Below, piece by piece: positions 15,398-19,954 of a DNA stretch of 19,954 nucleotides (its first letter is position 1; every line of letters starts with the position of its first letter). The stretch lies in the IMG/VR virus record IMGVR_UViG_2534681899_000007. One strand, 5' to 3'. The stretch comes from a virus (lineage: Duplodnaviria; Heunggongvirae; Uroviricota; Caudoviricetes). The translations under genes and the position numbers were made by a program. Under the pieces are notes generated by a model, which searched no databases, was not told where the DNA came from, and saw only the letters and a program-made list of their open reading frames with translations.

Positions 15398-15421
15398 CGT
15401 ATGGGGAATTGGATTCAATCG

Positions 15422-15811
15422 TTAACATTTTCTTTTTACTTTTCCAACAAAAGCTTTGGTTGAATCCATATTCCCATAACCAGAAATGGTTTTCGACATT
15501 AAAACTGTTCCATTAGGATGTATTACCCATGAGTCGATAACTCGTTGAGTTTCGCCATTCGCGCCGATTCCAATGATGGAGTTTTTAGACAATGCTTTGT
15601 AAGCCATGCCGCCCGCATCCGTCCCAGAATATGTGATACTGGCATCTTCACCGTTTGTCTTAATGATGAATGTTCCACTAAAACCATCTTCTTCCGGTTG
15701 AAAATTATTTCGTTCTGAATAGCTTATTCCGTGCATATCTCCAACGACCCAGCACTCTGCTGAGACAGAAAACGAGAAGACAAGGAAAGCCATTGCTATA
15801 ATCAATTTCAT
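15422..15811 (-). CDS. Small Sec-exported protein (129 aa), beta-rich, Cys near both ends of the mature chain; moron in the mnt operon
   Basis: Signal peptide MKLIIAMAFLVFSFSVSA with cleavage after SVSA. AAGGG Shine-Dalgarno 5 nt upstream of the ATG. AT-rich relative to flanking phage genes. Lies 15 nt downstream of the other moron ORF. Confidence 0.65.
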   Translation of the reverse strand: MKLIIAMAFLVFSFSVSAECWVVGDMHGISYSERNNFQPEEDGFSGTFIIKTNGEDASITYSGTDAGGMAYKALSKNSIIGIGANGETQRVIDSWVIHPNGTVLMSKTISGYGNMDSTKAFVGKVKRKC

Positions 15812-15826
15812 TTTAAGCCCTTATTG

Positions 15827-16162
15827 TTATTGATTCTTTTTGCACGGAAATGTTTTTCCTACTGCTAGGGCGGTTAGTATAACTGCACTCTCATTTCTTG
15901 ATTCTGGGTTTTTGTTTAGATATTTCTCAACGATATCGGTGTATTGATACATGTCAACGCCATCAGGAGGACATAGAGAACCAATTAGTATCAATGAGTC
16001 AGTTACTCCGCGCAAATATCCAGTAATGTAAAGCGATGAAAAATCATCACCCTTTTTACCTTGTTGAATGTTGTAAAGAAGGTCATTACCCGTTTGAAGC
16101 TCGCGCAGCTCAGCACTGGAAGAAGAGACAACTGCTAACAAGAACAGTGATAGAAATCTCAT
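15827..16162 (-). CDS. Small Sec-exported protein (111 aa), probably helical with 2 Cys; possible Rap1a/Tai4-like periplasmic immunity-type fold (tentative)
   Basis: Signal peptide MRFLSLFLLAVVSSSSA. Its start codon overlaps the mnt stop (ATGA) and an AAGGA Shine-Dalgarno lies inside the mnt 3' end. Mature part contains ...GYLRGVTDSL...SLCPPDG...ILTALAVGKTFPC. Confidence 0.65.
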   Translation of the reverse strand: MRFLSLFLLAVVSSSSAELRELQTGNDLLYNIQQGKKGDDFSSLYITGYLRGVTDSLILIGSLCPPDGVDMYQYTDIVEKYLNKNPESRNESAVILTALAVGKTFPCKKNQ

Positions 16163-16413
16163 TTCAAATCCTTTTCATAAATCTTTTTAAGTGTCTCAAA
16201 CACTATAGCCTTGAACTGCTCAGCCTGCTGATCAGCCAAGCGTTCAGCTTCGTCGCGATATCCTGTAATCGGTGATGGTTTTGATAGTGCATCCTGAACG
16301 ATTTGTAATAACTCAGAGTTCATTGACCTTCCGTTAGCCTCGGCTCTTAATTTCAATTTTTCTCTTACTTCCAAAGGCATACGGAAGTTAAAGTGCGGAT
16401 CATCTCTAGCCAT
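16159..16413 (-). CDS. mnt: Mnt repressor (P22 immI maintenance repressor, ribbon-helix-helix)
   Basis: MARDDPHFNFRMPLEVREKLKLRAEANGRSMNSELLQIVQDALSKPSP... is nearly identical to P22 Mnt as recalled. Transcribed divergently from arc/ant. Confidence 0.93.
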   Translation of the reverse strand: MARDDPHFNFRMPLEVREKLKLRAEANGRSMNSELLQIVQDALSKPSPITGYRDEAERLADQQAEQFKAIVFETLKKIYEKDLK

Positions 16414-16435
16414 GCCATCACTCCAAGTTAGTGTA

Positions 16436-16487
16436 TTGACATGATAGAAGCACTCTACTATATTCTCAATAGGTCCACCGTGGACCT
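16436..16487. promoter_or_regulatory. immI control region: Pant (-35 TTGACA 16436-16441, -10 TATATT 16459-16464), Arc operator (16441-16461) and Mnt operator (16471-16487), with divergent Pmnt overlapping
   Basis: ATGATAGAAGCACTCTACTAT matches the P22 arc operator. AGGTCCACCGTGGACCT is a perfect 17-bp palindrome matching the P22 mnt operator. Confidence 0.85.
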
Positions 16488-16503
16488 ATATTGTGAGGTG
16501 AAC

Positions 16504-16665
16504 ATGAAAGGAATGAGCAAAATGCCACAGTTCAATTTGCGGTGGCCTAAAGAAGTATTGGATTTGGTACGCAAGGTGGCGGAAGAAAATGGTCGGTCTG
16601 TTAATTCTGAGATTTATCAGCGAGTAATGGAAAGCTTTAAGAAGGAAGGGCGCATTGGTGCGTAA
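16504..16665 (+). CDS. arc: Arc repressor (53 aa, ribbon-helix-helix)
   Basis: MKGMSKMPQFNLRWPKEVLDLVRKVAEENGRSVNSEIYQRVMESFKKEGRIGA matches P22 Arc. The longer track ORF from 16441 starts inside the operator and is rejected. Confidence 0.93.
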   Translation: MKGMSKMPQFNLRWPKEVLDLVRKVAEENGRSVNSEIYQRVMESFKKEGRIGA

Positions 16666-16667
16666 AG

Positions 16668-16733
16668 TTGAAGCCCCAACTGCTGTAACAGTCAGGGCTT
16701 CGGCATCAACAAATCGGATTAGGAAATATTGAC
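16668..16733 (-). ncRNA. sar: Candidate sar-like antisense RNA covering the ant ribosome-binding site (tentative)
   Basis: P22 encodes a small antisense RNA (sar) across the arc-ant intercistronic region. Here a minus-strand TATACT -10 overlaps the ant start and a GAAGCCC...GGGCTTC hairpin lies at 16666-16702. Confidence 0.35.
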
Positions 16734-17612
16734 ATGAAAAGTATAGCAAAGGCACAAAACGATTTCACCATCTTCAAATTCGGCGACAGTGAAATCCGCG
16801 TCATCAACAAGTGCGGTGAGCCGTGGTTTGTAGCTAAAGATGTTTGTGATGCTTTAGATTTGACTAACTCACGCAAGGCGCTTACTGCACTTGATGACGA
16901 TGAAAAGGGAGTAACTTTAAGTTACACCCTTGGTGGTGAGCAGAATCTAAGCATTGTGAGCGAATCAGGTATGTATACATTGGTTCTGCGCTGCCGCGAT
17001 GCAGTCAATAAAGGTTCAGTCCCGCACAAATTCCGCAAGTGGGTAACAGCAGAAGTTCTGCCTTCAATTCGCAAACATGGCGAGTATGTAAAAGGAAAGA
17101 AAACCACTGTTGAGGAAAGAACACCGCTACGCGATGCAGTAAACATGCTGGTAGGAAAGAAAGGACTTCGCTATGACGATGCATACAATATGGTTCATCA
17201 GCGTTTTGGTATTGACAGCATTGATGAACTTTCAATTGAACAAATCCCGCTGGCCGTAGAGTACATCCACAGGGTAGTGCTTGAAGGTGAGTTCATTGGC
17301 AAACAAGAGAAGAAAACCAACTAGCTTTCTGCAAAAGAAGCAAACAGCCTTGTATGGTTATGGGATTATGCCAACCGCTCACAGGCATTATTCCGCGAAC
17401 TGTATCCGGCGCTAAAACAAATTCAATCGAACTATTCCGGCAGATGCTACGACTACGGTCATGAATTCTCGTATGTTATCGGAATGGCGAGAGACGTTTT
17501 AATAAACCACACACGAGATGTTGATATCAATGAGCCAGACGGACCAACGAATCTTTCCGCATGGATGAGACTTAAGAATAAAGAATTACCTCCTTCAGTA
17601 CATAACTACTGA
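16734..17612 (+). pseudogene. ant: Antirepressor Ant (Bro-N domain) interrupted by an in-frame amber codon at 17322-17324
   Basis: 196-aa N-terminal ORF with a Bro-N-like motif ([16 protein letters not shown]). After the TAG the same frame stays open for 95 further codons to TGA at 17610-17612, giving about 292 codons in total; P22 Ant is about 300 aa. Confidence 0.75.
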
Positions 17613-17630
17613 CAGATAACCAACGCAACG

Positions 17631-17656
17631 ACCCAGCTTCGGCTGGGTTTTTTTAT
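17631..17656 (+). terminator. Intrinsic terminator downstream of the full-length ant frame
   Basis: ACCCAGC-TTCG-GCTGGGT hairpin followed by TTTTTTT. Confidence 0.7.
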
Positions 17657-17713
17657 GCCCAAAATTCACCGTAGCTACGCTGCGGCGATTCCTTGTATCT
17701 GGAGCAAATTAAA

Positions 17714-19954
17714 ATGACAGATTCAATAAATGCCAATGTTGTGGTAAGCATGCCTTCGCAACTCTTCACTATGGCGCGTTCTTTTAAAGCGGTTGCCAAT
17801 GGCAAAATTTATATCGGTAAAATTGACACTGACCCGGTAAATCCTGAAAACCAGATTCAGGTTTATTTAGAGAACGAAGACGGCTCTCACGTTCCTGTAT
17901 CGCAACCAATCATCATTAACGCTGCTGGTTACCCGGTATATAACGGACAGATTGCCAAATTCGTTACTGTACATGGCCATTCTATGGCTGTTTATGATGC
18001 GTACGGTGCTCAGCAGTTCTATTTTCCTAATGTGTTGAAGTATGACCCTGACCAACTCAGGCAAGATCTTGCATCTCAAGGCGGTGTTAATCTGGTAAAC
18101 GGAGCTATCTCACAGGAAGATCTTGTTTTGCAGTCGATCACAAAAATCCCAAGTTATGATAATTCTAACGTAGTCCAGGCGTGGCGCGATAGTGTTGCTA
18201 CCTACGGGTATGTTTACTTTTCTAATCATTCAAAAAATCAGATGGTGTACACCGTACCGTCTACAGCTGCTAACGCTTCTTCCCTTGCGAACAGTAAAGT
18301 AATCATTGATAAAAATGTCACCCTGAGATTCGACAGTGATCTGTACTCACTGTTTAAATCGTTGCAGTACGAGGGGGAGGGTACGTTTGAATTTACGCAC
18401 CTGAACTTTAAAGCAACCGGTGGAGAAGTGGATTACCTGGCTAAGCAGGCCATCCTCAACCGAAACCCTATTCGCATGAAGCGAGTGGAATGGTCAGATT
18501 GTAAAGTTTATTCCATAAATGGTGACACGTTCTTCTATGAAGGTGAAGTCACCATATCCTCAGATAGCGCAGCTGTCGTCGCCTTAACTACTAACTATGC
18601 AACAGGCCTGTTCGCACCAATAGATATTGGTGAGCATATTTCTGCACATATTCGCATGGAATCTCAGGCCGCCTCAGAAGTTGGGATTGTTCTGCGATGC
18701 TCTGGTGGTTGGATGATGTTCTATGGGGCACCAGGTGCTACACAGTGGTCTTATAGACAGAAACCAATTGGTGGTCCAGTAGCAGAAGGAACTCCATTCC
18801 CGCTGCCAGGAGGTTTACTGTCGTACGCCCCGGGCAAAGCAACCGTTGGCGTATCACTGCAAGGTAAAAACTGGGCGCAGATAACGATGAATGGCGTTGG
18901 GATACGTTTGCCCTTTGATACTGGTGATGTAGGGGATGTATACGAAGTTGGGTTTGTTGCACTGACCCCGGCATCTGGAGGTTCTGCGCGAGTAACTGGA
19001 TTATGCAGCTACACCTCTGATAATGGCGTGCACGGTAAGCCTCCACTTAATATCCTTATCCACGGTGATAGTACAGCTGAGGATTTCATTTCCGCGTTCA
19101 GCTCGTACATTCCGCAATTAATGGATGGAGCGAACGGCCACCGTTCATATAGCCTTGTAAACAAGGCGGTTGCCGGACAGACAATGAGGCAACAGTTAGA
19201 TCTCCTGAAGGCTCAGGGGCCGGGTGATGCTTACATCGTTATTATGGTTGCCGGAACTAACGAAGGGCAGGCAAACCAAAACGGCGATTATATGGCGGCA
19301 CTGATAGATGAGTTTGTCTTATATTGCAATGGCCTTGGTCGTATCCCTGTTTGGGTTGAGCCGTGGATGTGGTATAGCCAGTCATTTATTGGAGGGGCTG
19401 GTCAGCCATCTTCTAACTACGACGGTGTCGCAGAGTTGCGAGAAGCTGGTAAACGCCAGATGATGAAATATGGCAATAACGTCATTTGTGTAACAACAAC
19501 TCACCAGCTCCCGGCCCCATATCCAGAGTATTTCAACACGCAATACGACCCACTTCTGCGTGATGACATTCACCAAAGCCAGTTAGGGTATCGTCTGTAT
19601 GCGGAAATTATCTGCTCTGCCATTATCGACTGGTGGTCGCGTGTTGATTACACGCCAAGAGCAGCTGTTCAATGGTGGGCTGGAACAAACGTAACAGTAC
19701 AGGCACCGTCAAGTTTAACTGCCAATTCAATTAATATTAAACTGGCAGCCACTTCATTTGCGAATGGCAATACTGTTCTAACGCTTCCGAGGTGGTGCAG
19801 ACCAAAAGTAACCAAAAATGTCCCTGTACCGTTCACTGCTGATGGCGTTTCATTTGGTATGGCAATGGCCACCATTAATGCTTCAACAGGACAAATATCG
19901 ATTGAAGGGTCCACAACTACATCTCCAACGTTCTACATAGATGCGACATGGTAG
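17714..19954 (+). CDS. Tailspike: P22-type head-binding N-terminal domain fused to a different receptor-binding region containing an SGNH/GDSL hydrolase-like domain
   Basis: N-terminus [35 protein letters not shown]...NVLKYDPDQ resembles the P22 gp9 head-binding domain. The downstream sequence is unrelated to the P22 endorhamnosidase and carries GDS (19064-19072), GTNE (19253-19264) and DDIH (19562-19573). Start chosen at the ATG after a GGAG Shine-Dalgarno, not at 17693. The stop is the last codon of the window. Confidence 0.88.

Follow-up and report, generated by a model that had tools for sequence, protein, structure and literature searches.

The region that separates the divergent genes mnt and arc, together with the spacer that follows arc, is, judging from its sequence and with very little doubt, a canonical P22-type immI switch that has been inherited intact within a mosaic P22-like (Lederbergvirus) prophage of E. 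coli. The window, that is, the whole stretch of 19,954 nucleotides that was analysed, was read between positions 15800 and 17900 with its open reading frames listed, and the order of genes around the control region is mnt (minus strand), arc (plus), ant (plus) and the tailspike gene, with a spacer of 90 bp between mnt and arc (between 16413 and 16504) and another of 68 bp between arc and ant (between 16665 and 16734). A megablast search of 16100-17700 against phage records recovered P22, epsilon34 and many P22-like phages, and the records of P22 (BK000583) and epsilon34 annotate Pant, Pmnt, both operators, sar, the sar promoter and the sar terminator. Against the annotated immI of P22 (BK000583 and X01916), positions 16400-16704 are approximately 97% identical with no gaps, and when 16400-16790 is aligned to P22 and epsilon34 the alignment runs gap-free through column 304 (position 16703 of the window); in this comparison every element named in the original prediction is present, with the spacing and the order of P22. 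When the entire window was compared with E. coli genomes and phages, the maximum coverage by any record was 68%, so that the prophage is a mosaic. The tailspike reading frame (17693-19954, plus strand), which runs off the end of the window, combines a P22-like head-binding N-terminus with a C-terminal part unlike the endorhamnosidase of P22.

The two divergent units, mnt on one side and arc-ant on the other, each encode a repressor of the ribbon-helix-helix type, as judged from the Pfam and PDB matches. Mnt (16159-16413, minus strand, 84 aa) matches the Pfam families Arc (97.6 bits) and Repressor_Mnt (44.4 bits), as well as the structure 1mnt (E = 1e-38), to which it is identical in the N-terminal recognition strand, ARDDPHFNFRMP. 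Arc (16504-16665, plus strand, 53 aa) matches Pfam Arc with 105.8 bits and the Arc repressor structure 1arq over its full length (E = 5e-31), and differs from the Arc of P22 solely by R16K, K16 being the common state among relatives.

Promoters and operators between mnt and arc

The arc-ant promoter, Pant, occupies 16436-16464 on the plus strand, with the -35 hexamer TTGACA (16436-41) and the -10 hexamer TATATT (16459-64) separated by 17 nt (11/12 matches in the scan); on the opposite strand the mnt promoter, Pmnt, extends over 16441-16469, with TTGAGA as its -35 (16469 to 16464), a spacer also of 17 nt, and TATCAT as its -10 (16446 to 16441; 10/12 matches), in such a way that each hexamer of Pant adjoins or overlaps a hexamer of Pmnt. 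Promoter-like matches to the consensus are, taken alone, not above chance (4 found, 3.2 expected), and the evidence for these two predicted promoters is their positional identity with P22, not the hexamers: the 29-bp feature of Pant is identical to the annotated arc/ant promoter of P22, and that of Pmnt, also of 29 bp, to the P22 mnt promoter (BK000583 14798-14826). The proposal of divergent promoters around TTGACA/TATATT is borne out in this sense, as both coincide with the P22 annotation.

Between the -35 and the -10 of Pant lies the operator of Arc, O-arc (16441-16461, 21 bp, ATGATAGAAGCACTCTACTAT), which is assigned by its sequence identity to P22, agrees at 21/21 positions with the protein_bind feature of that phage, and is the sole match in the window even when 3 mismatches are allowed (0 expected in shuffles). 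The operator of Mnt, O-mnt (16471-16487, 17 bp, AGGTCCACCGTGGACCT), is a palindrome of 8+1+8 bases placed over the expected start of Pant; it is likewise the sole match in the window (0.04 expected), and the inverted-repeat symmetry around its centre reaches 10+1+10 bases (16469-16489). The placement of both had been predicted to be that of P22, and so it is, O-arc lying between the hexamers of Pant and O-mnt beginning at its expected start. As to their description as perfect operators, it holds for O-arc, but O-mnt agrees with P22 at 16/17 positions, and a palindrome of odd length cannot be perfect at its centre. It is the centre base, 16479, that departs from P22, being C here and G in P22 and epsilon34, while both 8-bp arms are those of P22; in 44 distinct relatives the position is occupied by G (29), C (13), T (1) or A (1), and since it takes all four bases, the sole difference between O-mnt and its P22 counterpart falls at an unconstrained position.

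The antisense RNA sar

The spacer between arc and ant would encode the antisense RNA sar (16664-16733, minus strand, approximately 68-70 nt), complementary to the ribosome-binding region of ant. When the whole window was scanned against Rfam, a single match exceeded the threshold, namely RF00262, sar, at 16666-16732 on the minus strand, with 65.6 bits for a gathering score of 43 and an alignment that covers model positions 1-68, end to end. The 70-nt minus-strand RNA (16733 to 16664) folds as two hairpins followed by AACUUU, with a minimum free energy of -29.8 kcal/mol (z = -6.0; 0/200 shuffles as good) and a minimum-energy fold that coincides with the centroid fold; sar of P22, when folded, has the same two-hairpin architecture. 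The 5' hairpin (16705-16733, minus strand) has a stem of 7 bp, GUCAAUA/UGUUGAU, and exposes in its loop the anti-Shine-Dalgarno UCCU; the Shine-Dalgarno of ant, AGGA (16721-16724, plus strand, 9 nt 5' of the ATG), is complementary by construction to nucleotides 10-13 of sar. The terminator hairpin (16670-16701, minus strand), with a stem of 14 bp and a loop of 4 nt, directly precedes the AACUUU and is the GAAGCCC...GGGCTTC hairpin that had been noticed in the spacer; its stem does not differ from that of P22. The bit score is lower than that of P22 sar (97.8 bits) because the sequence of the 5' hairpin differs, and other alleles lie between 56 and 82 bits.

The predicted promoter of sar, Psar (16740-16768, minus strand, within ant codons 3-12), would consist of the -35 GTGAAA (16768 to 16763), a 17-nt spacer and the TG-extended -10 TGCTATACT (16748 to 16740), whose hexamer TATACT lies at 16745 to 16740; the scan gives 9/12 matches with TG. 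It sits at the annotated position of Psar in P22, its -35 is weak (4/6 of the consensus, vs 3/6 for GTGTTA in P22), and the predicted start of sar, 16733, is the base preceding the ATG of ant, as in P22. The minus-strand TATACT is present as the original prediction had it, but it covers codons 3-4 of ant and not the start that it was said to overlap, and Psar falls outside the interval 16436-16733 that had been given for the circuit. What had been put forward as a possible sar RNA is, by its score of 65.6 bits, its P22-like fold and the position of Psar, a clear member of RF00262.

A different reading of the arc-ant hairpin is that it attenuates or terminates plus-strand transcription from Pant, TATACT being a chance hexamer, and the plus strand of the same 70-nt segment does beat its shuffles (-22.5 kcal/mol, z = -4.1). 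We consider this very improbable, firstly, because the minus strand is the stabler one in every allele examined (among the full-length sar variants printed, -26 to -35 kcal/mol vs -18 to -24 for the plus strand) and because two G.U pairs of the sar stem correspond to C.A mismatches on the arc-ant mRNA, an asymmetry in folding that favours the minus-strand RNA as the structured species; secondly, because the U-run is on the minus-strand side and the Rfam match spans the whole of the sar model; and finally, because TATACT is retained, TG extension included, in ant alleles that have diverged, and sar is experimentally established in P22 (PMC13397905, PMC2629481), having been detected when P22 infection was studied by small-RNA sequencing (PMC13397905).

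The antisense RNA can also be followed through the alleles of the ant leader, of which at least 5 follow the same sar terminator hairpin. The 5' parts, 18 of them distinct and covering every leader allele found, form a minus-strand 5' hairpin in 18/18 cases, with an outermost pair that involves nucleotide 1, and their stems read GUUGGU/ACUGAC (P22), GUCAAUA/UGUUGAU (the window), GUCGU/ACGAU, AUCAAUAA/UUGUUGAU, GUUAG/CUGAC and GUCGA/UCGAU. These alleles were folded one by one, the MAFFT alignment being one column out of register at the 3' side of the 5' stem and therefore unused for pair counts. As the different stem sequences all pair, levels 4 and 5 of the stem show compensatory change, in the form of double changes (A-U, G-C, U-A); the predicted 5' hairpin of sar is kept via compensatory changes despite replacement of the allele. 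All of the loci tested (12/12) pass RF00262, with 56-98 bits. The -10 of Psar keeps TAnnnT (TATACT, TACACT or TAAGCT) together with TG in all ant alleles, whereby residues 3-5 of Ant are fixed as Ser-Ile/Val/Leu-Ala, and in most alleles of the E. coli/Salmonella type the arms of the terminator stem are invariant and the loop alone varies. A diversity of 0.36 for the sar terminator (pi, the mean pairwise difference per site) was rejected as an artefact, because 12 sequences with a 52-aa Arc shift the register by 3 nt, and the stem is invariant when properly anchored.

The manner in which these elements would work together is taken from the P22 literature and carried over to the present copy on account of its near-identity; the components of immI and their roles are summarised in PMC2629481, citing Liao 1987, Wu 1987, Schaefer and McClure 1997, and Vershon 1985, and a transcriptomics paper (PMC7067206) contains nothing on mnt or immI. 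Pant and Pmnt being overlapping and divergent, a polymerase at one would exclude another at its counterpart. In the lysogen, Mnt bound to the palindrome over the Pant start would keep arc-ant off, and Pmnt would be favoured, and with it the expression of mnt and of the genes behind it. After infection, Arc, as the first product of Pant, would bind the 21-bp operator and turn both promoters down. The sar RNA, of about 69 nt, would run from Psar, in the first codons of ant, to the hairpin of the arc-ant spacer, and by pairing with the ribosome-binding site of ant would block the translation of Ant, which, when made, would by analogy inactivate the prophage repressor, an analogy to be read with the N-terminal domain in mind, as this is unrelated to that of P22 Ant.

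Conservation of the circuit and the amber codon in ant

A search with Mnt gave 80 loci from IMG/VR and 3 loci from genomes (Pluralibacter, Pectobacterium and Serratia), which together with 5 record loci make up the 88 fetched loci; the 3 genome loci served as distant outgroups and were left out of the statistics. Diversity was calculated on 75 loci, reduced to 44 distinct sequences (42-44 across comparisons), by anchor-based extraction, with arc taken from 16504. The 34-bp core formed by Pant, O-arc and Pmnt has a pi of 0.0027, with two singleton variants only in the 44 distinct relatives, and the arms of O-mnt one of 0.026, values to be set beside 0.33 for the third codon positions of mnt and 0.17 for those of arc; expressed as variable sites, the count is 6/50 in the elements vs 37/81 at third positions in those halves of mnt and arc that adjoin them (Fisher p = 5e-5). 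By these measures the core of operators and promoters is constrained across the family, with the proviso that the loci had been preselected at >=90% identity over the control-region anchor and that third-position diversity also drops in the first ~14 codons of mnt and arc (0.044 and 0.048), so that part of the conservation may reflect linkage or recent spread of the module. At a greater distance, O-mnt of Pluralibacter and Pectobacterium agrees with P22 at 17/17 and 15/17 positions, with coding flanks that have widely diverged, and O-arc of Pluralibacter has one change. Among close isolates, 173 of 5426 complete E. coli genomes match the 90-bp spacer, all at >=95% identity (the lowest among the matches listed being 96.5%, and 36 being at >=99%), and no drift of the operators, which had been named as the observation that would speak against the preservation of the circuit, was found in these 173 genomes. 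Relatives with an intact ant have the same operator conservation.

The antirepressor gene, ant (16734-17612, plus strand, 292 codons), is interrupted at codon 197 by an amber TAG (17322-17324), where relatives have GAG, and its frame is open again after the TAG, to 17612. It is followed by an intrinsic terminator (17630-17649 and a T-run, to 17659, plus strand), found in the terminator scan as an 8-bp stem and then a run of T, which is the counterpart of the annotated ant terminator of P22. The reconstituted Ant contains the Pfam domains Bro-N (residues 20-110) and P22_AR_C (192-264); the TAG falls inside the latter, the antirepressor encoded in the window is not an intact one, and the truncated Ant is probably inactive unless the codon is suppressed. 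Over 15400-17700 a single difference separates the window from E. coli strain C, T vs G at 17322 (TAG vs GAG), and E. coli strain 631 has the same G as strain C. The amber is absent from 558/558 E. coli records with the surrounding 61-mer (best 60/61), and also from the 48 copies of the preceding 14-mer in the fetched loci (GAG 47, GAT 1, TAG 0), and the 96 codons past the TAG hold no further change from the intact gene of strain C. In strain C itself (NZ_CP029371 4296772-4305072, locus L004) the block of immI, cargo and tailspike lies in a prophage that is truncated upstream, where a partial acyltransferase pseudogene and torI stand before the ejection-protein gene in place of the late operon of the window.

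Since ant is otherwise the same as the intact copy of strain C and its one change is private, the amber codon is, going by these comparisons, either a single-base nonsense mutation of very recent origin or an error in sequencing. This leads to an explanation in which the TAG represents no biological loss whatsoever, being an error of sequencing or assembly, or else read through by an amber suppressor, and in which immI is fully functional. We regard it as a serious possibility, somewhat short of an even chance: a single G-to-T change found in no other sequence, followed by codons that are otherwise those of the intact gene, is what it supposes, but the sequence alone cannot tell an error from a fresh mutation.

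As regards selection, there has been no time since the amber for the operators to drift, and their integrity cannot, as a consequence, show selection after the loss of Ant; the control elements are intact in the present copy simply through descent, and the preservation of immI "despite" the amber reflects recency, not selection. The original prediction, that regulation is under purifying selection even though ant is amber-interrupted, is upheld as far as it concerns constraint on the elements across the family (pi and the Fisher test), but is not supported in its connection with the amber, which is private and recent. That a regulatory region is intact beside a nonsense mutation of one base does not testify to selection, and to recognise this corrects an attractive but unfounded inference.

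Exchangeable modules and the genes behind mnt

Ant is chimeric with respect to P22, in that it shares 85% identity with P22 Ant over its C-terminal 171 aa, whereas its N-terminal ~121 aa, which contain Bro-N, are unrelated to it. In 78 fetched loci the last 95 residues reach at least 90% identity, regardless of the N-terminal allele. The homology with P22 breaks at 16704/16705, just past the sar terminator hairpin, and beyond 16705 the 5' hairpin of sar, the ant leader and the first ~121 residues of Ant belong to a different allele from that of P22. From the other side, phage Kapi1 (vB_EcoP_Kapi1, MT813197) shares 98% identity with the window over a stretch that opens at the arc stop codon (16664) and takes in sar, ant and the terminator, has a sar that passes Rfam and an intact ant, and differs in having another pair of Arc-family regulators and another control region upstream of sar. 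The breakpoints of homology are in this way found to flank the sar terminator hairpin, at 16704/16705 and 16663-16669, the P22-like part ending at 16704 and the Kapi1-like part starting at the arc stop. Upstream of this hairpin there are at least 4 modules, namely the Arc of P22, the 52-aa variant of Arc, the regulators of Kapi1 and a zinc-finger-like reading frame; the breaks on both sides, and a stem that is invariant across at least 5 ant alleles and at least 4 upstream modules, suggest that the terminator is a recombination joint.

A variant form of immI was also observed (L071 1200-2255; also L047, L058, L018, L045, L039 and L025), in which there comes, behind a P22-type mnt, a second ribbon-helix-helix gene that is Mnt-like and of 87 aa. 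The divergent control region in loci of this type is another one, with repeats of TGCGTACC, and after it stand a different Arc-like gene, a 67-aa CxxC...CxxC reading frame, and then the usual sar terminator and ant; the O-mnt and O-arc of P22 are absent from them although mnt is present.

On the other flank, the start codon of a Rap1a/Tai-family immunity gene (15827-16162, minus strand, 111 aa, with a signal-peptide-like N-terminus; Pfam Rap1a, 55.3 bits) overlaps the stop codon of mnt as ATGA (16159-16162), and an identical protein in RefSeq bears the name Rap1a/Tai family immunity protein. This family we take to provide immunity against the amidase effectors of type VI secretion, and the prophage would be carrying an orphan immunity gene as cargo. 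It is followed 15 nt downstream by a reading frame of 129 aa (15422-15811, minus strand), also with a signal-peptide-like N-terminus and with no match in Pfam, of which RefSeq annotates a shorter version of 104 aa as hypothetical; its homologues exceed 90% identity in 15 fetched loci and are weaker in 28 more. No terminator-like site was found between the cargo genes on the minus strand. Expression of the Rap1a gene in the lysogen probably proceeds from Pmnt, co-transcription of the cargo from this promoter is likely, and it is plausible, on the arrangement of the genes, that mnt drives the cargo linked to it. The same cargo genes are carried by the prophage remnant of E. coli strain C (NZ_CP029371) and by approximately 20 other E. 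coli prophages, a group that agrees with the window throughout 15400-17700 save at position 17322. The slot behind mnt in P22 holds accessory genes, and the region has been described as an "ant moron" (PMC2629481); P22 has orf59a and sieA in that position, in contrast to the Rap1a-family gene and the secreted reading frame found here, and epsilon34 has other genes in it. The literature searched on the operator specificity of Mnt and on Rap1a in prophages offered nothing directly usable.

From this arrangement a further explanation can be drawn, according to which Ant is lost and selection maintains the Mnt/Arc/sar circuitry because Pmnt expresses cargo of benefit to the host, that is, the Rap1a-type gene and the secreted 129-aa protein. 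Although the ATGA overlap with the mnt stop, the next reading frame 15 nt on in the same strand, the minus strand without a terminator-like site between the cargo genes and the accessory genes that P22 likewise holds in this slot (PMC2629481) would all suit it, we think it unlikely: the amber is private, in an allele otherwise identical to an intact one over 2.3 kb, which leaves no period after the loss in which selection could show; the same operator conservation is found in relatives with an intact ant; and the cargo is restricted to 15/88 fetched loci and 22 E. coli genomes. Descent, for its part, accounts for the intact control elements in the present copy.

It could be supposed in addition, tentatively and as something that we find rather doubtful when taken as a whole, that the sar terminator has acted as a fixed recombination joint at which modules of regulators and antirepressors are swapped within the mosaic "ant moron" region, the 5' hairpin re-evolving with each ant allele, and that in this lineage Pmnt, activated by Mnt, would drive, by translational coupling, a periplasmic Rap1a-type gene of type VI secretion immunity that protects the lysogen from its neighbours.

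In summary, the switch is real and was correctly recognised, but it is already known, and as far as its sequence allows one to judge it maps one-to-one onto the P22 system, an intact ant being the sole defining feature that it lacks. Since the 1980s immI has ranked among the textbook circuits, and sar has its own curated family in Rfam (RF00262). The automatic annotation of these E. coli prophages recognises two genes as "Arc family DNA-binding protein" and a third as an Ant protein and leaves the 90-bp mnt-arc spacer blank, and the practical value of the finding is one of annotation, with little weight as discovery. What remains of mild interest is the sar terminator, which may be a fixed joint between exchangeable modules, and a Rap1a-type gene that would be translationally coupled to mnt.
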